DNA of 64,000 bases from an uncultured bacterium (GCA_963813815.1 CAWFAD010000016.1:448001-512000); one strand, 5' to 3'. Positions 37,680 to 57,501 are shown, counted from the stretch's first letter. Numbers and translations: made by a program. Notes: generated from the letters alone by a model not told the origin.

Positions 37680-38945
37680 ATGGGCAGCACGAAGATAGCG
37701 ATCATCGGACTCGGATACGTGGGGCTTCCGCTCGCGGTCGAGTTCGGCAAGCAGTACGACACCGTGGGGTTCGACGTCAACGCGCGAAGGGTCGCGGAAC
37801 TGAAACGCGGCGAGGATCGAACGCTCGAAACGAGCTCCGGCGACGTCAAGGCTGCGAAGCGCCTCCTCGTGACGACCGAGATCGAGGATATCCGCCCCTG
37901 CAACGTTTACATCGTCACCGTGCCGACCCCCATCGACGATCACAAACGCCCCGATCTCACCCCCGTCGAGCGCGCCACGGAAACGGTCGGAAAGGTGCTC
38001 AAGAAGGGGGACATCGTCGTCTACGAGTCGACCGTCTATCCGGGCTGCACGGAGGAGTTCTGCGTGCCGATTCTCGAGCGGCTCTCGGGGCTCGCTTTCA
38101 ACGGGGATTTTTTCTGCGGGTACTCTCCCGAGCGGATCAATCCCGGCGACAAGCAGCACACCGTGACGAAGATCAAGAAGATCACGAGCGGCTCGACGCC
38201 GGAGGTCGCCCGCAAGGTCGACGAGCTCTACCGCTCGATCATCACCGCCGGCACGCATCCGGCTTCCTCGATCAAGGTCGCCGAGGCCGCGAAGGTGATC
38301 GAAAACTCGCAGCGGGACATCAACATCGCCTTCGTGAACGAGCTCGCGCTCATCTTCGACCGCCTCGGCATCGACACGCTCGAGGTGCTCGAAGCGGCGG
38401 GCTCGAAGTGGAACTTTCTGCCTTTCCGGCCGGGCCTCGTCGGCGGCCACTGCATTGGAGTCGATCCGTATTACCTCACGCACAAGGCGCAGGAGATAGG
38501 GTACCACCCCGAGGTCATCCTCGCCGGGCGGCGCATCAACGACAACATGGGGATCTTCATCGCGGGCAAGATCGTCAAGCTCATGATCCACAAGGGGCAC
38601 CGGGTGCAGGGCGCCCGCGTGCTCATTCTCGGCGTCACCTTCAAGGAAAACTGTCCCGACATCCGCAACTCGCGCGTGGTCGACATCGTGCGCGAGCTCG
38701 CTGATTTCGGATGCAAGGTGGACGTGTACGATCCGTGGGCCGAGAGCGCGGAGGTCGCCGAGGAGTACGGGTTCCCGACCGTCGACCGGAGCGCGGTCTC
38801 CGCGGGAGGCTACGACGCGGTCGTCCTCGCCGTCGCCCACGAGAAGTTCCGCGAGCTCGATATCCTCTCCCTCAAGGGCGAACGGGGAGTCGTCTTCGAC
38901 GTGAAGGCCTTCCTCGACAAAAAAGTGGTGGACGGACGGCTCTGA
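37680..38945 (+). CDS. UDP-N-acetylhexosamine 6-dehydrogenase (TviB/WbpO-like)
   Basis: GLGYVGLP, ESTVYPG, SPERINPGD, GGHCIGVDP, FKENCPDIRNS. Confidence 0.92.
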   Translation: MGSTKIAIIGLGYVGLPLAVEFGKQYDTVGFDVNARRVAELKRGEDRTLETSSGDVKAAKRLLVTTEIEDIRPCNVYIVTVPTPIDDHKRPDLTPVERATETVGKVLKKGDIVVYESTVYPGCTEEFCVPILERLSGLAFNGDFFCGYSPERINPGDKQHTVTKIKKITSGSTPEVARKVDELYRSIITAGTHPASSIKVAEAAKVIENSQRDINIAFVNELALIFDRLGIDTLEVLEAAGSKWNFLPFRPGLVGGHCIGVDPYYLTHKAQEIGYHPEVILAGRRINDNMGIFIAGKIVKLMIHKGHRVQGARVLILGVTFKENCPDIRNSRVVDIVRELADFGCKVDVYDPWAESAEVAEEYGFPTVDRSAVSAGGYDAVVLAVAHEKFRELDILSLKGERGVVFDVKAFLDKKVVDGRL

Positions 38946-40407: not shown

Positions 40408-41937
40408 TCAGGGTTCGAGTCCCGGTCCGATCCGCGACAGCCCCCGTTTCGCCCCTTCGCTGCGATCGTCCTGCGCCAGCGCCTCGAGGTACGCCGCTCC
40501 GGCGCGCAGCGTGTCGCCGCGCGAGAGATACGCGTCGCCGGCCCGAACGAGGTTCGCGGAGAGCCCCTGCGGCGTGTCGCGTGCGACGGTGAAGTTCGTG
40601 AAGATGACGAGCGCTCCGAGGGCGGCGGCGAGGAGCGCGAGCTCGGCGAGGGAGCGCCGCCTCGCGAGCGAGGCGAGACCCGTGACCGCGGCCGCCGCGA
40701 AGGGTATGAGAAAGGGGATCGCCGGAAGACGGTATCGAGCGGTGACGTAAAACGCGACGGCGGTCGCGAGATAGGCGAGCGCGCCGCCGTAGAGGAGCCA
40801 CAGGCCGCGGGCGCGGTCGCGCGAGAGAAACATGCCGAGGAGCGCGAGCGGTGCGACGATTCCGAAGGTCAGAAGCGGCAGCCGCAGAACTCCCGGGAAA
40901 CGCCGGTGAAAGTAAAAGCTCTCGACGTTCGCCCGCTCGTGGCGGTTCCAGAAGAAGAGAAACTTCTGCCACGCGAGCGCCGACCACTTCGCGGGGTGAT
41001 CCCGTCCCCAGCGAAGTCCCGCGGCAAACCAGAAACGCGACACGCCGGACTCGCCGAGCGCGCGCCCCGAATCGTCGCGGGCGATCTCCGTCATGAGCCT
41101 CCATTGCTCCTCCGGCGAGCGGCCGAGCGATTTCCCGCGATAGGACGGCGGCGCGTAGTAGCCGTTCGCGCCGGCGTTGTTGCCGATGTAGAAATTGATG
41201 CCGCCCCCCGTCGTGAGGGGGATGAATTCCCCCGCGCGGAGATAGTTGCGGATGACCAGGGGGGCGAGGGCGAGCGAAACTCCCATGACGATCGGGAGCG
41301 CGCCGCGGGCCAGTCGCGGTCGTCCCGCCCCGCCGAGGCGGACGTGGAGCAGGACGAAGGGGAGAAGCAGCAGCGTCGGCGGGTTCGCCGCGATCGCGGC
41401 GCCGAGGACGATCCCGCCGGCGAGCATCGCCGCCGGCCCCGGCCGCCGGGGGAGGACGAAGGCGGCGACGGCGAGCGTGTTCAGAAAAACGATGAGCGTC
41501 GCCGGCAGGATGAGCCCCTCGAAGAAGATGAGCGGCGCGTAGAGCGCGGCGATAGCGCCCGCGACGAGCGCCGCGGCGGTGGACGAGAAGAGGCGCCGCG
41601 TCACGAGCGCGATGAGAACGACCGAAGCCGTTCCGAGCGCCGCCTGTAGCGCTCTCGCGGCCGCGGGGACGGGGCCGAAGATCCGATAGAGGGCGGAAAG
41701 GAGCCACGGGTAAACGGGGGACTGCATGAGGGTCGTCGGCCCCGCGTCGCCGCCGAAGGCGAGAGCCCGGGCCCAGGCGTCGTACGTCGCCGAGTCGAGC
41801 TGGAGGGAGGAGGCGAGAGGATTGAGCCGCTCCGTGAAAAAGAGATGGAGAAGACGGATCGCGAGGGCGGACGCCGCGACGATGCCGGCGGCGAAGAGCC
41901 ACCTCGCGTTTCGATCGATGCGAGCGCGCCGGGTCAT
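40408..41937 (-). CDS. GT-C (GT39/ArnT-like) glycosyltransferase with C-terminal TPR-like tail
   Basis: DSATYDAWA, PVYP, GGINFYIGNN, ARYRLP; multiple TMs. Confidence 0.8.
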   Translation of the reverse strand: MTRRARIDRNARWLFAAGIVAASALAIRLLHLFFTERLNPLASSLQLDSATYDAWARALAFGGDAGPTTLMQSPVYPWLLSALYRIFGPVPAAARALQAALGTASVVLIALVTRRLFSSTAAALVAGAIAALYAPLIFFEGLILPATLIVFLNTLAVAAFVLPRRPGPAAMLAGGIVLGAAIAANPPTLLLLPFVLLHVRLGGAGRPRLARGALPIVMGVSLALAPLVIRNYLRAGEFIPLTTGGGINFYIGNNAGANGYYAPPSYRGKSLGRSPEEQWRLMTEIARDDSGRALGESGVSRFWFAAGLRWGRDHPAKWSALAWQKFLFFWNRHERANVESFYFHRRFPGVLRLPLLTFGIVAPLALLGMFLSRDRARGLWLLYGGALAYLATAVAFYVTARYRLPAIPFLIPFAAAAVTGLASLARRRSLAELALLAAALGALVIFTNFTVARDTPQGLSANLVRAGDAYLSRGDTLRAGAAYLEALAQDDRSEGAKRGLSRIGPGLEP

Positions 41938-48738: not shown

Positions 48739-49437
48739 TCATTGAACGAGAGCCCCGTTCCATTCGACGAGCCGCCCCGAGATCCAGAATCCGCCGATGA
48801 TGCTCACGAGGGACGCTCCCCGCGGACGGAACGGAAGCTCGACGAGCCGGAGCGGCTCCGCGGGCTCGAGGTGTATCCGCTCGAGAAAGTCGCTGTTGCT
48901 CTGGAGCGGCTCCGCGAGGGTCGCGAAAAAGATGAAGTCCATGAGGGCCGCCGCCTCCTCGGCCCGGAGCGCGCAGAGCACCGGCCGTCCGGCGCCGTCG
49001 GAGCGCTCGATCGAGAAGGCCGGCTGCGCCCGCGTGAGGAGACGCCCGACCTTGAGATAAGCGTAGGTGTTGAGCGATTTGAAGGCCGGAATGAATATCC
49101 GGAGCATTCCGACGCTCTCGAGCCTTTCCATGACGTTCCTGATCTCGGTCGGCGAGGGCAAACGCTCCGCGCCCGCGGTCTCGTCGATGCGGCGTTTGAG
49201 CGCCGGTCCGTCGACCTCCGCGATCCAAAACGGGAGCCAAACGCGGCCGTCTCCCGCGGCCGGGCCGTCTTCGGGAGCGATCGCGCGGTGCACGGTCACC
49301 GGCTCGAGCGCTTCGGCGCCGAGCACCCAATAGCGAAGGCACGACGGACACTGGAACGTCACGAGCTGCCCCATGACGGGAAGCTCGTTCCCGCAATGAC
49401 CGCACCTCAAAGGCCTGATGCTGAGATCTTCCGGCAT
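48739..49437 (-). CDS. Double zinc-ribbon protein (YdjG-like)
   Basis: CGHCG..CPSC, WLPFW; last gene of the SPFH operon. Confidence 0.7.
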   Translation of the reverse strand: MPEDLSIRPLRCGHCGNELPVMGQLVTFQCPSCLRYWVLGAEALEPVTVHRAIAPEDGPAAGDGRVWLPFWIAEVDGPALKRRIDETAGAERLPSPTEIRNVMERLESVGMLRIFIPAFKSLNTYAYLKVGRLLTRAQPAFSIERSDGAGRPVLCALRAEEAAALMDFIFFATLAEPLQSNSDFLERIHLEPAEPLRLVELPFRPRGASLVSIIGGFWISGRLVEWNGALVQ

Positions 49438-49438
49438 G

Positions 49439-50491
49439 TCAATCCTCACCTCCGAGGAACATGTTCGCGCGATGGGCCATCCATTCATGCGGCGGTAGGA
49501 ATCCACGCTCCTGAAACGCGTCGATGGCGTACAGGGCGACGAGCGGAGCCGCGACGAGCGGGGGCCACAGGGCGGCGAGAGCGGCGAGCGCCGCCGGTCC
49601 GAAGAAGAGGCGCTTCGCGTTCACGCGCCGCCGCGGGGGAACCTCGCCCCGCACGACGAGGCCGTTTCCGGCGTCGACCGTGACGGTATAGATGCGCTCC
49701 GCGTGGCGGTAGCGCAGGAGATACACGGGGTAGTAGTAGAGCGAGAGGCTGCTGTCGAAGAGCTGAAAGCGGCTCGCGCGCACCGTCGTCCCCGCTGCCG
49801 TCGCGAAGTGCGCGAGAAAGCTCAGGGCGTCGCGCCGCGCGGAGCGCTCGCTCCGCGTGGGGAGGGCGACCGTGTGCTCGCGGCGCCGCCCGGCGTCGAG
49901 CACGTCCCACTCGAGAAAATCGGTTCGGAACGAGATTCCCTGAAGCCCGAGGCTGGGGAGCACGCACGCCGGCGCGCTCCAGTCGATCCGTTTGAAGAGA
50001 AGCCGCGAGTAGGGAGTTCGTTCCTCGCGCATCGTCGTGCGCGTCTCGGTCGAGCGCGGATCGGCAGAGGCGATCTCGACCCGCACGAGCTTCGTGCGCT
50101 CGCCCGAGAGCCAGCCCATGACCCGGCCGCGAAGTCGCCAGAAAGGCACGTGCACGAGCCGCTGATCGACGATCGCGGTCTCGCGGGCGGAGATTCGGCC
50201 GCTCGATTCATCCGCGATCCACCGGATCGCCGCGAGCCGGGCCTTGCCCGGCGTGGTCGACGGTTTGAGAATGAAGCTCCGTAGACCGCGCGGCGCGGCG
50301 ATGAGGAGCGCCGACGAGCAGTAGCCGCAGCGGATGCTCCGTTCCCCTTCGTTGATGCGGAGCGCTCCGCCGCATGAGGGGCAGGTCGCCCCGAAGGCGA
50401 GCCCGCGATCGGCCGCTCTTCGGCCCCGCGAGGGGATCTCGCGCTCCGCTGACGCGCGTTCATCCATGGCGCTCGAATGCACGGCCGTCAT
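49439..50491 (-). CDS. Zinc-ribbon protein with C-terminal TMs (YdjG-like)
   Basis: CPSCGG..CGYC, HVPFW, YYPVY, VDAGNG; ATGA overlap with upstream stop. Confidence 0.7.
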   Translation of the reverse strand: MTAVHSSAMDERASAEREIPSRGRRAADRGLAFGATCPSCGGALRINEGERSIRCGYCSSALLIAAPRGLRSFILKPSTTPGKARLAAIRWIADESSGRISARETAIVDQRLVHVPFWRLRGRVMGWLSGERTKLVRVEIASADPRSTETRTTMREERTPYSRLLFKRIDWSAPACVLPSLGLQGISFRTDFLEWDVLDAGRRREHTVALPTRSERSARRDALSFLAHFATAAGTTVRASRFQLFDSSLSLYYYPVYLLRYRHAERIYTVTVDAGNGLVVRGEVPPRRRVNAKRLFFGPAALAALAALWPPLVAAPLVALYAIDAFQERGFLPPHEWMAHRANMFLGGED

Positions 50492-51180
50492 CCCTTCGCC
50501 CGCTCCCGGAGCGTAAAGACGAGATACCCGGCCGACGCGGCCGCGGCCACAGCGGCGAGTCGGCCGAAAAAACCAGGCGTGACCTTCGCGAGCGTGAAAT
50601 ACACGGCGAAGAGAGCGGCGATCGAAAGTCCCAGTCCGAGGCTCGGCCTGCGCCTGCGCTCGGGGGGCAGATCCTCCGCGACGACCTGCCAGCTCTCGCC
50701 GACGACCGCCGCCCGGCCCCGCCAGCCGCCGGCCTCGTACTCGAGGGAATACACGGGAAGGTAAACGATCCGCGGCGCTCTCGGATCGACGCTGTCGGCG
50801 TCGACCACCGGTTCCGGCTGCTCGCTCTCGCTCAGGAACCCGTAGCTCCCGGCGGGAGGGTACGGCGCCTGATCGGCCGCCGTCCACGCGCCGGCCGCCG
50901 GAACGAGGGAGATCCCGCCGTCGTCATCCTCCGCCATGGAAAAGGGAATGAACGAGAAATCCGTCGCCAGGCGCGTCGCGCGCCGGCGCTCTTTCCGGGC
51001 GAGGTGCGATCGCAGCGATGCCTCGGCCGCCGCGTCGTCGCGCGCGTGCGAAAGGATGAGACGCTCGACTTCCCTGGGTTTGTCGAGGGCGAGGGATGCT
51101 CCGCAGAAGGAGCAAATGAGCATCGTTTGCCCCGGCTCGAACCGGTTCTCCCCGCCGCAGAGGCTGCATTGAACGAACAT
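50488..51180 (-). CDS. Zinc-ribbon protein with two C-terminal TMs
   Basis: CSLCGG..CSFCG, FIPF, YLPVY. Confidence 0.7.
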   Translation of the reverse strand: MFVQCSLCGGENRFEPGQTMLICSFCGASLALDKPREVERLILSHARDDAAAEASLRSHLARKERRRATRLATDFSFIPFSMAEDDDGGISLVPAAGAWTAADQAPYPPAGSYGFLSESEQPEPVVDADSVDPRAPRIVYLPVYSLEYEAGGWRGRAAVVGESWQVVAEDLPPERRRRPSLGLGLSIAALFAVYFTLAKVTPGFFGRLAAVAAAASAGYLVFTLRERAKG

Positions 51181-51222
51181 GGGAACCCGCCTGTGTTCCG
51201 CCGCCGCCGCGGCGCCCGCGCG

Positions 51223-52281
51223 CTACGCCTTGCCGCCTTCGAGGTTCTTGCCGCAGCCCATGCAGAACTTCGCGCCCGCCGGAACCTCGGTCTTGCAGCC
51301 GGGGCATTGGATCGAGCGCGCGACCGGCGCGCCGCAGGAGGCGCAGAAGCGCGCATCGGCCGCTATCTCCGCGCGGCATTTCGGGCAGAGGACCGCGTCT
51401 TTGACGGCGGACGCTCCGCCCTTCATTCCTTGGGCGATCATGCCTGGGATCATGAACCCGAGGCCGGCGCCCAGGCCGATTCCCATCCCGCCGGCCGCAG
51501 CGCCGCCCGCGCCGCCGTCTCCGCCGGAAGTCGCGGCGTCGCCCATGGCCTTCGCCGCCTTGAACTTGAAGAAGCTGTCGAGATCGCCCACCGCGGCGAG
51601 GCCGCTCCGCTCGTCGATCATCTTCTGCACTTCGGGGGGCGGGGTGATGGCGCTGAGGTAGAAGTCGGCGAGCTCCATGCCGTATTTGCGAAAGTCGCCG
51701 ACGAGGCGCTCCTTGATCTCGACCGCGAGCTCGTCGTACTGGCGCGGCAGATCGAAGATGGTGTCGAGCTTCTCGCCGAAGAGGTCGTTGATCCGGGCGA
51801 CGATCACGTCACGGAGATAGTCGCCGATCATCCCGCTCGTGTAGAAGCCCTGCGTGCCGACGACCGCGTTGATGAAGAGCGCGGGCTCGGCGATCTTGAA
51901 GGTGTAGACGCCGAAGGCTCGGAGCCGCACGAGGCCGAGCTTCGAGTCGGTGAAGGCCACCGGATCCTTCGTGCCCCATTTCTGGTTGATGAAGCTCTTC
52001 ATGTTGACGAAGAAGACCTCGGCGCGGAACGGGCTCTTGAATCCCCATGGGAGCGAGATGATCTTCGTGAGGATCGGCAGGTTCTTCGAGGTGAGGGTAT
52101 GTCGTCCGGGTCCGAAGATGTCGAGCCCCTTGCCGTCCTTGAAAAAGACCGCCATCTGGTTGTCCCGGACGATGAGCTGCGCGCCGATCTTGATCTCGGC
52201 GGACCCTTCCGGTGGAATGCGGTGAACGATCTCGTCGCCTCCGAGATCGAACCATTCCAGGATTTCCATGAACTGAGACAT
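51223..52281 (-). CDS. SPFH (band 7) protein with C-terminal double zinc ribbons (YdjI-like)
   Basis: [48 protein letters not shown]. Confidence 0.9.
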
Positions 52282-52534: not shown

Positions 52535-52918
52535 GTGGCTCTCTTTGCTGCTTTCGGCATCGGTATCATCTTTCTTTTCATCTTCATGGTGATCCTCGGC
52601 GGGCTCTTTATGTGGCTCGCCGCCAAGATCTCCCGCATCGAGGACTCGAGCTTCGGCCGGGCGCTCGTCGCGGCGATCGGGGCGAGCTTCGTCGCGGTTC
52701 TCGCCGCGTTTCTCTTCAACCTGCTGCCCGTCTTCGGCAACATGTTCGGCTTCATCGTCGGGCTCATCCTGTCGATTCTCGTCATCAAGGCCGCCTTCCG
52801 CACCTCCTTCGGGAAGGCGCTCCTCGTCTGGGTTTTCAATCTCGTCGCGACGCTCATCGCCCTGGGGCTCGCGGCCGTTCTCACGGCGAGCTCGTTTCTC
52901 ATCGGACGCTCCATCTAG
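52535..52918 (+). CDS. Small 4-TM membrane protein
   Basis: AAAGGAG RBS before GTG; internally duplicated SFG(R/K)AL helix pairs. Confidence 0.75.
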   Translation: MALFAAFGIGIIFLFIFMVILGGLFMWLAAKISRIEDSSFGRALVAAIGASFVAVLAAFLFNLLPVFGNMFGFIVGLILSILVIKAAFRTSFGKALLVWVFNLVATLIALGLAAVLTASSFLIGRSI

Positions 52919-52974
52919 CTCCGCGGCGGCTGCGCGCGAGTCGCCGCGGCGAGACGGGAGGCGGAATCGTCGCC

Positions 52975-54177
52975 ATGAAAGAACGCGGTGTTCCGATCGT
53001 GATGTATCACGGCGTCGGCCCCGATCGGGAGGGGTGGCCGTGGAACTACCTGTTCACGCCCTCTGACGTTTTCGAGCGCCAGATGCGGGCCCTCCGGGAT
53101 GAGGGATGGACGACGGTCACCCTCGCCGAGCTTCACGCGCACATGGCCTCGGGCGCGCCGCTTCCGCCGAAGCCGGTCGTGCTCACCTTCGACGACGGCT
53201 ACGCGGACAACTGGGTCTACGCGTACCCGCTGCTCAAGAAATACGGTCATCGGGCGGCGATCTGGATGAGCACCGATTTCGTCGATCCGCGCGGCGTGCC
53301 GCGTCCCACGATCGAGGACGTCTGGGCAGGGCGCCTTCGCGAAGCGGAGATCGATCCGCGCGGCTATCTCTCGTGGGCCGAGATGCGCCGCATGGCGGAG
53401 AGCGGCCACGTCGAGATACAGAGCCACGCGATGACGCACACGTGGTATCCGGTCGCGGAGGATATCGTCGACTTCCACCGTCCGGCGGGGGTGGACGATT
53501 ACGAGCCGCCGCTCTGGCTCGGCTGGAACATGTTCCCGGGACGGAAGCACGAGAGCATGCACCTGAAGCTCTCCGATCTCGTGCCGCTCGGCACGCCGGT
53601 CTACCGGCACGAGAAATCCCTCGCGGCGCGCCGCTATTTCGAGGACGAACGTCTGACGGAGAGGCTTCGCGCCCACGTCGCCTCCTCGGGCGACACGGCG
53701 TTTTTCGAGGAGCCCGGGTGGCGCGAGGAGCTCATGGAGATCGTGCGCGAGCACGGAGTGGGCGGCGGCCGGCTCGAGACGGAGAGGGAGTACGCCTTCC
53801 GCGTTCGCCGGGAGCTCGTCGAGTCGCGCAGGATGATCGAGGAGGCGCTCGGCGCGAAGGTGGAGTTCTTTTGCTGGCCGGGAGGCGGCCGGAGACCCGA
53901 AACGCTCCGCATGGCCGAGGAGGCGGGGTATCTCGCGACGACCACGCACTTCGAGGACCGCTCGCGGCGGAACGTCCGGGGACAGAACCCGCGCGAGCTC
54001 TCCCGCATCGGTTCGGGATCGCCGTGGACGTGGCGGGGAATCGCCATCAAACGCACCGGCCCCGGCTTCTTCATCGCCAACCTCGAGACCTTCGCCGGCG
54101 GCGAAAAATCGATTTGGCGCCTTCGCGCCCATAAACTACAATATCTCCTCCGGCACTTCGTTTCGGGCGCGCGCTGA
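52975..54177 (+). CDS. CE4 (IcaB-like) polysaccharide deacetylase with large insertion
   Basis: IVMYH, LTFDDGY, LSW, QSHAMTH, FCWPGG. Confidence 0.88.
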   Translation: MKERGVPIVMYHGVGPDREGWPWNYLFTPSDVFERQMRALRDEGWTTVTLAELHAHMASGAPLPPKPVVLTFDDGYADNWVYAYPLLKKYGHRAAIWMSTDFVDPRGVPRPTIEDVWAGRLREAEIDPRGYLSWAEMRRMAESGHVEIQSHAMTHTWYPVAEDIVDFHRPAGVDDYEPPLWLGWNMFPGRKHESMHLKLSDLVPLGTPVYRHEKSLAARRYFEDERLTERLRAHVASSGDTAFFEEPGWREELMEIVREHGVGGGRLETEREYAFRVRRELVESRRMIEEALGAKVEFFCWPGGGRRPETLRMAEEAGYLATTTHFEDRSRRNVRGQNPRELSRIGSGSPWTWRGIAIKRTGPGFFIANLETFAGGEKSIWRLRAHKLQYLLRHFVSGAR

Positions 54178-54195
54178 CGAGCGCGAGGGGGAAGC

Positions 54196-55917
54196 ATGTT
54201 TCCGCCGCTGCCACCGGCGCTCATACGGAACGTCATTTATCCGGTCTACCGGGGGCTCCGGCGCGACCGGCTGCTCTCCGTCCTCGAGGAGCTCGAGCGG
54301 AACCAGTGGCTCTCCGCGCGGGAGATCGAGGACCTCCAGTGGAGCCGGCTCGCCGCGCTCATCCGCGGGATTGCCGCGTACGTGCCGTTCTACGAGGACC
54401 TGCTGAAACAGATCTCGCTCGCGCCCGAGGACCTGCAGAGCCCCGAGGATTTCCGGAGGATCCCGTTCCTCACGAAGGAGATCATCCGGAGCGCCGGGGC
54501 CCGGATGACGTCGAAGGATCCGATTCGGCGCGGCTTCCCGTCGAGCACGGGAGGGTCGACGGGGGAACCGCTCTTCTTTTACGGCGACGTTTCGACGGGC
54601 CCGCTCCGCAGGGCGAACGGGATGCGCGGGTTCCGATGGGCGGGGATCGACATCGGCGACCGGCAGGCGGTGCTCTGGGGCACCCACCTCGGCTCGGGGC
54701 GGCGCGAGCGGGCCGCGCAGGCGGCGCGGAACTATTTCAGCAACACGCTCTACCTGTCGACCTTCGACATGTCCGACGCGTCGATGGAGCGGTACGCGGC
54801 GAGGCTTCGCGCCTTCCGGCCGCAGCTCTTCACCGGATACCCCTCGGCGCTCGCGCTCTTCGCCGCCTTTCTCCGCTCCCGGCGGGCACAGGATATCCGG
54901 CCGCGCGCGGTCATCGCGAGCGGCGAGGAGCTCTACGAAAGCCAGCGCGAGCTCATCGAGGCCGTGTTCGGCTGCCGGGTCTTCGACCGGTACGGGAGCC
55001 GCGAGTTCGCCGGGGTGGCGCACGAATGCGAGGAGCACCGCGGACTCCACGTCATGAGCGATCTCTTTTACGTCGAGGTCGTCACCGAGAGCGGCCGCCC
55101 GGCGAGCGAGGGCGAGATCGGCGAGATCGTCGTCACGGACCTCTTCAACACGTACATGCCCTTCGTCCGCTACCGGACCGGCGACCTCGCCGTGACGACG
55201 GGGCGGACGTGCCCGTGCGGACGCGGGCTGCCGCTCCTCGAGCGGATCGAGGGACGGAGCTTCGACGCCATCGTCACGGCCGACGGCAGGCATATCGGCG
55301 GCTTTTTCTGGACGTGGCTCTCGCGCGCGGTGCCGGGCATCCGGCGCTTCCAGGTCGAGCAGCGCGAGCGGAGCGGCGTCATCTTCCGCTTCGTGCCGGG
55401 CCCCGAGTGGCGCGACGAATACGAGCGCTCGCTCGAGAAGAAAATCAGGGAGAACTGCGGCGACGGGTTCGGCGTTTCCTTCGAGCGCGTCGGAGAGATT
55501 CCCCTCACGCCGTCGGGCAAGTCGAAGTTCATCATTTCGAACGTCGGCGAGCGGCTCGTCGTGAAGTCGAAGATCCATCGCGCGACGATCACGGCCGAGG
55601 AGCCCGACGGACCCGACTGCATCGTGATCGACGAGGAGATCATGGAGCTCGCCAACATCTCCCGGAACGAGAAGGTGCTCATCGTCGATATGACGAACGG
55701 CGAACGCGTCGACGCCTTCGCCGTGCCGGGCGCGCGGGGCGGGGGAGCGGTGACGGTCTGCGGCGCCGCGGCGAAGCTCGTTCACACGGGGGACACCGTC
55801 GGCATCATGGCGTTCACCTGGTCCGAAGGCCCGACGGGGCGGTTCGCCAACATTCTCGTCGACGAGCGGAACCGGTTCGCCCGGTACCTCACCGAGAACG
55901 CCGGAGATACGGTCTAG
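54196..55917 (+). CDS. PaaK/CapK-like adenylate-forming ligase fused to a C-terminal PanD-like domain
   Basis: STGGSTGEP, RYGSREF, RYRTGD, EGR, TPSGK; then KSKIHRATIT..IDEEIMELANI..NGER..GAAAKLVHTGD. Confidence 0.9.
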   Translation: MFPPLPPALIRNVIYPVYRGLRRDRLLSVLEELERNQWLSAREIEDLQWSRLAALIRGIAAYVPFYEDLLKQISLAPEDLQSPEDFRRIPFLTKEIIRSAGARMTSKDPIRRGFPSSTGGSTGEPLFFYGDVSTGPLRRANGMRGFRWAGIDIGDRQAVLWGTHLGSGRRERAAQAARNYFSNTLYLSTFDMSDASMERYAARLRAFRPQLFTGYPSALALFAAFLRSRRAQDIRPRAVIASGEELYESQRELIEAVFGCRVFDRYGSREFAGVAHECEEHRGLHVMSDLFYVEVVTESGRPASEGEIGEIVVTDLFNTYMPFVRYRTGDLAVTTGRTCPCGRGLPLLERIEGRSFDAIVTADGRHIGGFFWTWLSRAVPGIRRFQVEQRERSGVIFRFVPGPEWRDEYERSLEKKIRENCGDGFGVSFERVGEIPLTPSGKSKFIISNVGERLVVKSKIHRATITAEEPDGPDCIVIDEEIMELANISRNEKVLIVDMTNGERVDAFAVPGARGGGAVTVCGAAAKLVHTGDTVGIMAFTWSEGPTGRFANILVDERNRFARYLTENAGDTV

Positions 55918-55979
55918 GGTACTTTCCGGCGGCGCCCGTTTGTACTATATTTCCCCCCGGCGCCGGGGCGTGGAGCGTT

Positions 55980-56339
55980 ATGAAACGGTTGCTGCTCAAA
56001 TCGATGATCCTCAAGGCCACGGTGACGCAGGCCGACGTGCATTACGTCGGCAGCATCACGATCGACCAGGATCTCATCGAGAAGGCGAATCTCTGCGAGC
56101 ACGAGAACGTTCTCGTCGCCGACCGTTCGAACGGCCGCCGTCTCGAGACGTACGTCATCGTCGGGGAGCGGGGGAGCGGCGTCATCGCGATGAACGGCGC
56201 GGCCGCGCATCTCATCAACGAGGGGGACGTCGTCGACATCATGGCGTTCAGCTGGTCGAACGGGGAAGTGCATCCCCTCTTCATCGAGGTGGACCGGGCG
56301 AACCGTTTCGCGGGTTATCACGACGGGGACGTTTCGTGA
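55980..56339 (+). CDS. panD: Aspartate 1-decarboxylase-like proenzyme (variant lacking K9/H11)
   Basis: YVGSITID cleavage site, NGRRLETY, NGAAAHL; GGAG RBS. Confidence 0.88.
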   Translation: MKRLLLKSMILKATVTQADVHYVGSITIDQDLIEKANLCEHENVLVADRSNGRRLETYVIVGERGSGVIAMNGAAAHLINEGDVVDIMAFSWSNGEVHPLFIEVDRANRFAGYHDGDVS

Positions 56340-56379: not shown

Positions 56380-57501
56380 ATGTTCTCCATGAACCTGCGG
56401 TTGTTTCGCCTCATGTCGATCCCGGTCGAGATCAACCTGAGCTGGCTCTTCGTGCTCGCGCTCATGACGTGGACCTTCGCGACCGGCTTCTACGCGGACG
56501 CGCTTCCCGACGGCAGCAGGCTCGAGCTCTGGGGGCTCGGTTTCATCACGGCGATTCTGGTGTTTGTCTCGATCCTGCTCCACGAGTTCAGCCATTCGAT
56601 CGTCGCCTCCCGCAACGGTCTTCCGATACGCAAGATCACGCTCTTTCTCTTCGGCGGCGTCGCCCAGATGGAGCGCGACGTCGATAACCCGACGGTCGAG
56701 CTCAAGATGGCGGCGGCCGGCCCGGCGATGTCGGTCGTGCTGGCGGCTCTGTTCTTCGCGCTCTCGAGGATCTTCTCGCAACACCGTCTCGTGTACGTCC
56801 TCATGAACAATCTCGCCTACGTCAATCTCCTCGTGCTCGGATTCAACATGGTGCCGGGTTTTCCGCTCGACGGCGGCAGGATACTCCGCGCCGCGATCTG
56901 GCGCGCGACGGGAAACGTGCAGAAGGCGACGCGCATCGCGAGCCGGATCGGCGGCGCGTTCGCGATCGTGCTCATCGTCTACGGCGTGATCAATCTCTTC
57001 GGCGGCGTCATTATCGGCGGACTCTGGCTCATCTTCATCGGTTTTTTCCTGCGCCAGGCGGCGCAATCGGGATATCTGCTCGTGACCTTCAAGCAAACGC
57101 TCGGGCACCTGCGGGTCTCCGACGTCATGCGCTCGCCGGTCGTGACGGTGGACGCCTCGGAGAGTCTGCGTCGCCTCGTCGACGACTACGTTCTCCGGTA
57201 CCACTACGCGTCGTTTCCGGTGATCGAGGGAGGACGGCTCGCGGGCATGGTCTCGCTCAAGGACGTCAAGCGGGTCGACATGTCGGCGTGGGGCGAGGCG
57301 AGCGCGGGGGAGATCGCGGATCGCGGGATCGTGCCGTACGCGCTCAGCCCGGAGCAGCCGGCCGAGGCGCTCGTCGGCCTCATGATGAAAAAAGGATACG
57401 GCCGGCTGCCGGTCGTGGACGGCGAGGGCAGGGTGGTCGGGATCGTATCGAGGCGCGACCTGATGGAAACGATCAAGATGATGGCGTATCTCGAGGAGTA
57501 G
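56380..57501 (+). CDS. Site-2 protease (M50) with tandem CBS domains
   Basis: HEFSH, AGP, FNMVPGFPLDGG, CBS pair. Confidence 0.92.
   Translation: MFSMNLRLFRLMSIPVEINLSWLFVLALMTWTFATGFYADALPDGSRLELWGLGFITAILVFVSILLHEFSHSIVASRNGLPIRKITLFLFGGVAQMERDVDNPTVELKMAAAGPAMSVVLAALFFALSRIFSQHRLVYVLMNNLAYVNLLVLGFNMVPGFPLDGGRILRAAIWRATGNVQKATRIASRIGGAFAIVLIVYGVINLFGGVIIGGLWLIFIGFFLRQAAQSGYLLVTFKQTLGHLRVSDVMRSPVVTVDASESLRRLVDDYVLRYHYASFPVIEGGRLAGMVSLKDVKRVDMSAWGEASAGEIADRGIVPYALSPEQPAEALVGLMMKKGYGRLPVVDGEGRVVGIVSRRDLMETIKMMAYLEE

Follow-up and report, generated by a model that had tools for sequence, protein, structure and literature searches.

The window analysed here is a 64,000-nucleotide stretch of DNA from an uncultured bacterium (GCA_963813815.1, CAWFAD010000016.1), namely contig C16:448001-512000 of a 2.53-Mb genome which has 16 contigs and is estimated to be 90.8% complete. 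At 52535-56339 on its + strand lie four co-directional genes, which encode a small membrane protein, a deacetylase of family CE4, an adenylate-forming ligase fused to a domain resembling aspartate 1-decarboxylase (PanD), and a free PanD. Two genes make up the conserved core of the cluster, that of the ligase::PanD-like fusion and that of the free PanD, and the residues of one decarboxylase active site are divided between the two PanD copies. Gene models were taken from a codon-model gene call, the list of open reading frames and inspection of the sequence. They confirm the original prediction for this DNA, made by a model from the sequence, in its placing of four co-directional genes at this position and of the ligase start 18 nt after the CE4 stop. 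The G+C content is 59-70% across the whole stretch (2-kb windows) and about 65-67% over the four genes, and no terminator-like site was found between them. The features of the cluster, in positions of the window, are listed below.

52535..52918, + strand: small membrane protein of 127 residues with about four transmembrane helices (hydrophobicity; weak Yip1 match)
52975..54177, + strand: cytoplasmic CE4 (NodB-type) deacetylase of 400 residues (PF01522)
54196..55917, + strand: ligase::PanD-like fusion of 573 residues (PaaK structures 4r1l and 2y4o; PF02261)
54196..55254, + strand: fusion residues 1-353, the large N-terminal ANL ligase domain, PaaK/CapK-like (4r1l match and motifs)
55255..55557, + strand: fusion residues 354-454, with the hinge G353-R354, the small C-terminal ANL subdomain, the A10 loop G441-K442 and a flexible linker
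55558..55896, + strand: fusion residues 455-567, the PanD-like domain, predicted to be unable to self-process (PF02261; alignment to 2c45)
55939..55952, + strand: TTTGTACTATATTT, within the 62 nt that separate the fusion from panD, shared with three close relatives
55980..56339, + strand: free PanD of 119 residues (PF02261, TIGR00223)

Is the fusion a real gene, or was it made by assembly? Its last 134 residues were searched against proteins of 315-1003 residues, and 86 fusion clusters (at 90% identity) were found, all with E-values of 7.5e-36 or better and all with a PF02261 match. A length of exactly 573 residues is shared by 52 of the 86, and the source names are Candidatus Krumholzibacteria or Krumholzibacteriota, Latescibacterota and 'UBP1'. 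Since the fusion recurs in 86 clusters from many independent assemblies, it is not an assembly artefact, and the possibility that it is unique to this assembly does not hold. For its distribution in the phylum, 201 genomes of families f1-f9 were sampled, of which f1, f2 and f3 form the window's order. Genomes with any match to the fusion number 39/41 in f1, 8/8 in f2 and 1/1 in f3. Among the matches listed for the 201 genomes (256 weaker ones lie outside them), those running through the PanD-like part come only from the window's order within Krumholzibacteria; those in f4-f9 end at about residue 446-473 with 31-43% identity, that is, they are unfused ligases. Among 1.84 billion representative proteins, just 3 reach an E-value of 1e-30 or better to the fused PanD-like domain, and the fused-type hits in this library are all fusions or fusion fragments. 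The open-access papers searched describe no PanD heteromer, PanD paralog pair or PanD/PaaK fusion, and the architecture is, as far as these searches reached, undescribed, as the original prediction had supposed. The enzyme families are known ones; their conserved arrangement is new and the division of one active site is unusual.

How constant is the two-gene unit? A set of 21 loci was compared, consisting of the window and 20 regions chosen to span 13 genera of f1, f2 and f3, the added ones drawn from genomes with a full-length fusion match. In 19 of the 21 the fusion is immediately followed by the free PanD. In other genomes of the order, at least two PF02261 matches were found in 43 of 50, or 43 of the 46 which have any match. 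Three genomes of the order have a single match; in one of them (G126) the fusion is cut by the end of a contig, and in another (G146) the match is of the fused type and stops some 200 bases short of where the fetched stretch ends.

Both PanD copies match PF02261 well above its cut-off of 25 bits, the fused domain at residues 454-560 (E 5.4e-24, 84.7 bits) and the free PanD with 126.2 bits (E 7.6e-37). On the TIGR00223 model, with a cut-off of 106 bits, the free PanD is above (115.9 bits) and the fused domain below (76.5 bits). Residues were numbered by alignment to M. tuberculosis PanD (2c45). The fused domain has KSKIHRA...PDGPDC...RVDAFA...VCGAAA in this alignment. Lys9, His11 and Arg54 are still there, while Gly-Pro-Asp-Cys stands for Tyr22-Val-Gly24-Ser25, Ala-Phe for Thr57-Tyr58 and Cys for Asn72. 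The free PanD reads KSMILKA...HYVGS...RLETYV...MNGAAA. Here Lys9 is replaced by Met and His11 by Leu, residue 86 is Asp, and the pyruvoyl side is whole, with Tyr22, Gly24-Ser25, Arg54, Thr57, Tyr58 and Asn72 all kept. The residues found in the three kinds of PanD are as follows.

Single-copy PanDs of the sister families f4, f7 and f9 (n = 30): K9, H11, Y22, G24, S25, R54, T57, Y58, N72 and I86 all 30/30, none changed
Free partners (n = 20): Y22, G24, S25, R54, T57, Y58 and N72 kept in 20/20; changed are position 9 (M in 20), position 11 (L 17, M 2, V 1) and position 86 (D in 20)
Fused domains (n = 21): K9, H11 and R54 kept in 21/21; changed are position 24 (D in 21), position 25 (C 18, S 3), position 58 (F 19, V 1, T 1) and position 72 (C 15, G 4, S 1, A 1), and position 22 is never Tyr

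The larger sets agree with this division. In the 86 fusion clusters, Lys9, His11 and Arg54 are each found in 86/86, Asp24 in 85/86, Phe58 in 82/86 and Asn72 in 0/86, with Cys 67, Gly 14 and Ser 5 at position 25 and Thr 77, Ser 5 and Ala 4 at position 57. Seven more free partners, some of them from the same genomes as the 20 and thus not independent, have Met9 together with Leu or Met at position 11 in 7/7, and no Lys9 or His11 was found in any of the 20 free PanDs examined from the order. The canonical pattern of ten residues (K9 H11 Y22 G24 S25 R54 T57 Y58 N72 I86) is exact in 109 of the 149 best library representatives. In a maximum-likelihood tree of PanD, which is unrooted and built on few columns, the canonical, free and fused sequences each form one group (support 100/98, 99/93 and 100/99), and the fused group has the longest stem.

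The original prediction had read the cluster as 'PanD + PanD', two active units whose product, beta-alanine or an analogue, serves a purpose other than pantothenate synthesis. Both regions are indeed above the PF02261 cut-off, and the genome has no match to PF02569 or PF02548. However, because Gly24-Ser25 has become Asp-Cys and Tyr58 and Asn72 are lost (Phe and Cys stand in their places), the fused domain cannot itself make beta-alanine, and its 76.5 bits against 106 speak the same way. Moreover, the genome is only 90.8% complete, and panC is present in 14/14 other genomes of the genus. The version with two active PanDs is thus contradicted at the level of the residues, and we hold it to be highly improbable.

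Then what could two such half-equipped copies do together? The active site of PanD lies between adjacent subunits, with Arg54 contributed by the neighbour, according to passages of PMC6969166. According to PMC3314653, substrate analogues touch Lys9 and Arg54 of the other subunit as well as Pyr25, Thr57 and Tyr58; Lys9 forms a pair with the alpha-carboxylate, and the proton is donated by Tyr58. Self-activation of PanD needs Thr57, as stated in a part of PMC3975893. Because Lys9 and Arg54 come from the neighbouring subunit in solved PanD, the losses of the two copies complement each other. There is also a deposited structure, 1pt1_A, with Ala at position 11; it is a single 143-residue chain spanning Gly24-Ser25, unlike the processed PanD entries, which are deposited as separate alpha chains, and we take it to be the unprocessed H11A mutant.

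These residues point to an aspartate 1-decarboxylase that is a heteromer, with its active site split between the two copies and assembled on the ligase, and we consider this reading probable. The free PanD would bring Gly24-Ser25, where the chain cleaves itself and the pyruvoyl group arises, along with Thr57, Asn72 and Tyr58 as proton donor; the fused domain would give Lys9, His11 and Arg54 from the neighbouring-subunit side. Only the docking of a free PanD on a fused domain would complete an active site, and the free PanD would probably also need it for maturation; beta-alanine would be made on the ligase itself. There would be a second, non-catalytic interface in the same assembly, where Asp24-Cys25 of the fused domain would face Met9, Leu11, Asp86 and Arg54 of the free PanD. 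As a speculation, this interface may be a rebuilt pocket that holds beta-alanine or passes it on.

One alternative is that the two proteins are not coupled at all. The fused domain would then be a decayed passenger or an oligomerisation module, the free PanD would work as a Met9/Leu11 homotetramer, and the complementary pattern of residues would be a coincidence. It fits this that the genes are not adjacent in 2/21 loci and that one genome, described below, has a free Met9/Leu11 PanD with no fused partner found. However, a decaying passenger domain is unlikely, because three purely active-site residues, Lys9, His11 and Arg54, are kept in 86/86 clusters while others were lost. The substitutions themselves are fixed (Asp24 in 85/86, Met9 in 20/20, Asp86 in 20/20), and of the other genomes of the order, 46 have some PF02261 match and 43 of these have both forms. 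We therefore regard the absence of coupling as improbable.

Position 86 deserves a separate look. It is Ile in 30/30 canonical PanDs and Asp in 20/20 free partners, and it is Ser in 8, Gly in 7 and Ile in 6 of the fused domains. In the window this Asp86 lies at about 56235-56237, a fixed change which might alter the pocket or the interface. The same change could be taken to mean that the same heteromer acts on another acidic substrate, such as glutamate, cysteate or cysteine sulfinate, and that the ligase installs GABA (gamma-aminobutyric acid) or a taurine-like amine. Against this, the residues that hold aspartate, Arg54, Thr57, Tyr58 and Lys9 (as given in PMC3314653), are kept on the fitting subunit, and the genomes have panC and no other PanD. 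A change of substrate thus seems quite improbable to us.

Some stand-alone PanD-like proteins among the library representatives also depart from the canonical pattern. P0110 (113 residues) has Gln11, Gln22, Gly24-Cys25 and Asp86; P0164 (146 residues) has Asp24-Cys25 and His54; P0094 (148 residues) has a fused-type N-terminus and keeps Gly24-Ser25; and P0093 (125 residues) has Met9 and keeps His11. They might be further split or degenerate PanD systems.

Is the ligase part still an enzyme? The fusion matches PaaK structures (4r1l with E 4.7e-32, and 2y4o with E 8.9e-21 over residues 36-447), and the core motifs of the ANL adenylate-forming superfamily are present. In a set of 42 fusions, T118-G120-S121-T122-G123-E124, Y266-G267-E270, R325-Y326-T328-G329-D330 and the hinge G353-R354 are either invariant or conserved to 90% or more; G441 and K442 (A10) reach at least 90%. 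We take these to be the motifs known as the P-loop (S/T)GG(S/T)TG, YGxxE, YRTGD, the GR hinge and the A10 lysine. By these motifs the ligase seems to have its catalytic equipment intact, and since they are so well kept across the 42 fusions it is under selection as an enzyme. An AlphaFold2 model of the fusion built from 42 homologues has a mean predicted local distance difference test (pLDDT) of 83 and a predicted template modelling score (pTM) of 0.64. The N-terminal domain is confident in it (pLDDT mostly 85-95) and the C-terminal subdomain is less so; pLDDT falls below 50 at residues 354-357 and 437-454, the latter being modelled as a disordered tether, after which the PanD-like domain forms a separate fold with pLDDT of about 90.

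Membership in a named ligase family was judged by the NCBIfam/TIGRFAM equivalog cut-offs. The best NCBIfam match is the DVU_1553 family (NF045666), with 162.3 bits against a cut-off of 300 and over the N-terminal domain only, and the assignment as a DVU_1553-family AMP-dependent coenzyme A (CoA) ligase was rejected. Likewise rejected was phenylacetate-CoA ligase PaaK, for which the scores (103.2 bits against 646.3 for TIGR02155, 113.7 against 700 for NF041878) indicate homology only. In public annotations the fusion and PanD proteins are called 'aspartate 1-decarboxylase' or 'phenylacetate-CoA ligase'; both automatic names are misleading and fit neither protein.

What would such a ligase do with beta-alanine made on its own surface? 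As all adenylation motifs are kept, it would most likely use it, either by adenylating it or by taking it as the amine acceptor. Taken as a whole, the heteromer tethered to an active ligase is in our judgement evenly poised, with as much to be said for it as against it. As to the acceptor, the genes around the ligase and its relatives are the guide.

The CE4 protein matches PF01522 (E 6.6e-22, 78.2 bits against a cut-off of 23.1) in two stretches, its catalytic domain being interrupted by an insertion. It has the motifs TFDDG at residue 71 and HAMTH at residue 151, and D73, D74, H151 and H155, presumably the Asp-Asp and His-x3-His metal ligands, are invariant in 16/16 relatives. No hydrophobic segment was found in the protein, hence no signal peptide or membrane anchor, and the original description of a CE4 enzyme with intact metal motifs and without a signal peptide is borne out. 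The protein resembles the N-terminal domain of PgaB, and identity with this poly-beta-1,6-GlcNAc deacetylase was rejected, since TIGR03938 gives 101 bits against a cut-off of 321.9, over the N-terminal 140 of 621 positions only, and PgaB is periplasmic while this protein has no signal peptide.

A link of the ligase to glycans is seen at the loci of its unfused paralogs. The closest of them are 39-43% identical, and of 6 loci examined, 5 lie among genes for GT4, flippase, PGA_cap and AsnB-like proteins. A CE4 protein of the window's subfamily, 39-42% identical to that of the window over 317-389 residues, is adjacent to the unfused ligase or within two genes of it in 4 of the 6 loci (L094, L095, L098 and L099, not L096 and L097). 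From these loci it follows that the ligase and a cytoplasmic CE4 form an older two-gene module of polysaccharide clusters. Around the fusion itself, 10/21 loci have a GT4 gene immediately before either the fusion or the CE4 gene; two loci add FrhB-like and pyruvyl-transferase genes, and one adds Bac_transf and Poly_export (a priming transferase and export). In the window no glycosyltransferase stands next to the CE4 gene, and 11-14 kb upstream there are a UDP-glucose/GDP-mannose dehydrogenase (37680-38942) and a PMT_2-like transferase (40411-41937). The CE4 gene immediately precedes the fusion in 9/21 loci and has another place in 3 further loci; it is not in the fetched region of 8, and L089 has only a weak, different CE4-like protein. 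The idea of glycan tailoring in the original prediction therefore stands as far as the ligase/CE4 pair in polysaccharide clusters is concerned, and is weakened by a CE4 gene beside the fusion in only 9/21 loci. In the same way, the conservation of the deacetylase next to homologues is partial, with 9/21 directly upstream and 8 to 9 loci lacking it, including all four of f2.

Since the ligase descends from ligases paired with a cytoplasmic CE4 in polysaccharide clusters, the most likely target would be part of a glycan precursor, either an amino sugar freed of its N-acetyl group or a uronic acid, and the attachment site would be the amine freed by CE4 or the uronic acid carboxylate. That the ligase attaches locally made beta-alanine to a glycan precursor is the least certain step, and we put it forward tentatively, as a possibility that may well fail. 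The most complete form of the proposal goes further still. It holds that the split-site PanD is obligate, with neither paralog working alone, that beta-alanine is joined directly to the CE4-deacetylated sugar (giving an N-beta-alanyl amino sugar) or to a uronic acid, and that the second interface is possibly a rebuilt pocket. We think it somewhat unlikely that all of this would hold together.

Is the pair then simply the pantothenate enzyme of these bacteria? In the window, and also in this 90.8%-complete genome, no match was found for panB or panC (PF02548 and PF02569 searches), as the original prediction had said for the window. Its conclusion that the role must lie outside pantothenate synthesis fails, because panC is present in 14/14 other genomes of the genus, in 41/41 of the window's family and in 196/201 sampled genomes of the phylum (the phylum-wide survey covered panC and PF02261). 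The absence of panC here is probably an assembly gap. In the genomes of the window's order the fused and free copies are the only PF02261 matches. As the only PanD in genomes that have panC, the pair probably supplies beta-alanine for pantothenate too. In families f5, f6 and f8, panC is found in 7/7, 85/87 and 9/9 genomes but PF02261 in 0/7, 0/87 and 0/9, so another route to beta-alanine exists in the phylum and PanD is dispensable there. Most of the sampled phylum must get its beta-alanine without PanD.

These data bear on the main rival explanation, in which the pair is the order's aspartate decarboxylase for pantothenate and CoA and nothing else. The fused domain would be a 'prozyme' that activates or gates the free PanD, and the ligase part would be a sensor or regulator (of ATP, CoA or acyl-CoA, for example) with no use of beta-alanine. 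It would be like PanZ/PanM, which couples PanD to acetyl-CoA in enterobacteria; E. coli PanD requires PanZ, according to the part of PMC3975893 concerned. The wide presence of panC, the lack of any other PF02261 match in the order, the f2 loci with fusion and PanD and no glycan genes beside them, and the short fusions without most of the ligase C-terminal subdomain all agree with it. However, a mere sensor would not need adenylation motifs kept, with the A10 lysine, at 90% or more in 42 fusions; the ligase lineage sits in glycan clusters with CE4; and f5, f6 and f8, with panC and without PanD, show that pantothenate does not require PanD in this phylum. A pure housekeeping role thus appears unlikely to us, though it keeps a real share of the probability.

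Several observations weigh against the coupled heteromer and its use on a glycan. The first is genome G032, from the window's family (94% complete, 160 contigs), where a GT4 gene is followed by a free Met9/Leu11 PanD and then by an M50/CBS protease (L100, G032:C31:3000-11000). The fusion and CE4 genes are missing from between the GT4 and the free PanD, and no fused domain was found in the assembly, either with the PanD-like domain or with the whole fusion as query (best E for the latter 1e-24). Second, the free PanD keeps Arg54 in 20/20, which a simple one-sided model does not need. Third, the two genes can be apart. In G038 a second copy of the fusion (L078, C148) lies in an exopolysaccharide (EPS) cluster with Bac_transf, Poly_export, GT4s, FrhB-like, pyruvyl transferase and CE4 genes and has no PanD beside it, and in G157 (L089, C7) the fusion and PanD are separated by an 11-gene glycan cluster with GT4s, GT2, an epimerase, FemAB/GNAT-like and CE4-like proteins and a nucleotidyltransferase. 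Fourth, CE4 and glycosyltransferase genes are found around the fusion in none of the four f2 loci. Finally, 9 of 87 fusion clusters, of 498-524 residues, are without 60-100 residues that make up most of the ligase C-terminal subdomain (about residues 360/368 to 421/453 of the window's protein). These are P0015, P0018, P0030, P0046, P0049, P0050, P0056, P0083 and P0087, and locus L090 (G134) carries such a short fusion. In most of them the Ser-Gly-Lys motif of A10 is still present, immediately ahead of the PanD-like domain; in P0050 and P0087 the A10 Gly-Lys is gone as well. Given these short fusions, the chemistry of the ligase may not be essential everywhere.

The membrane protein starts with GTG, 6 nt after AAGGAG, and has three hydrophobic stretches, the middle one of which could hold two helices; its match to Yip1 is weak (25.2 bits, under the cut-off of 28.6). 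Its family, F26, is found in 3/21 loci and in 4 of another set of 9 loci, and as a component of the system it was rejected, since it is in just 3 of the 21. It is a variable neighbour outside the conserved core. The site TTTGTACTATATTT between the fusion and panD is also found upstream of panD in L003, L004 and L006 and was not found there in the more distant loci L007, L008 and L011; it may be panD's own promoter or control site. After PanD, at 56380-57501, follows a site-2-type M50 protease with two CBS domains, which takes this place in 16/21 loci and is likely plain synteny. On the other side, on the minus strand at 48742-52281, there are three proteins without a Pfam match (211, 350 and 230 residues; families F11-F13, in 10/21 loci), and after them an SPFH/Band-7 protein with a C-terminal double zinc ribbon (family F09, in 11/21 loci). 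This block adjoins the cluster, and its order is kept across the window's family.

There is a further question, why such a pair would matter. In textbooks PanD is a pyruvoyl enzyme that processes itself and works as a homo-oligomer, and it is also a drug target. If the proposal is true, the pair would be a clean bacterial example of a homomer that became an obligate heteromer, and, with one paralog joined to a ligase that adenylates, it would show how a metabolite can be made right where it is used. For the CapK/PaaK-like ligase and cytoplasmic CE4, which are a widespread and uncharacterised pair, it would offer a first hint of function, and it would predict a beta-alanine-bearing glycan in an uncultured phylum.

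Several known systems resemble parts of this arrangement. PanZ has the GNAT fold, is not a PanD paralog and is not known to give catalytic residues. The likeness lies in that PanZ/PanM of E. coli, which depends on acetyl-CoA, is a second protein needed for the maturation of PanD, as described in a part of PMC3975893. PaaK/CapK-like ligases, including the amide- or ester-forming NatL2/AjiA1 and DdaG, share with the fusion homologous N- and C-terminal ANL domains, the same motifs and an occurrence among polysaccharide genes; PMC3684757 names CapK as part of an EPS cluster. However, no described member is known to have a PanD-like domain, and the fusion is far below every equivalog cut-off. In nodulation factor synthesis, NodB removes an N-acetyl group as a CE4 enzyme and NodA then acylates the freed amine, and ArnD is a CE4 enzyme of the cytoplasmic face. 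Here too a cytoplasmic CE4 gene lies beside that of an acyl-activating enzyme, but where that system has a NodA-type acyltransferase, this one, known from its genes, has an ANL ligase. Bacterial PanD itself, the pyruvoyl homotetramer of 2c45 and 1aw8, belongs to the same PF02261 fold family as both PanD-like parts; it is a homo-oligomer with a full site per subunit, whereas here the residues are divided between two paralogs, one of them fused to a ligase. The closest known logic is that of trypanosomatid AdoMetDC with its prozyme and of the deoxyhypusine synthase heterotetramer, in which a duplicated enzyme is active only, or much more so, as a heteromer with a dead or impaired paralog; the former is pyruvoyl-dependent and activated by the dead paralog (from portions of PMC5201418 and PMC3663545). 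Those systems are eukaryotic and unfused and work by allosteric relief or shared sites, while in the bacterial heteromer, as inferred from its genes, each paralog would have lost a different half of the interface site, and the 'dead' one is fused to an enzyme.

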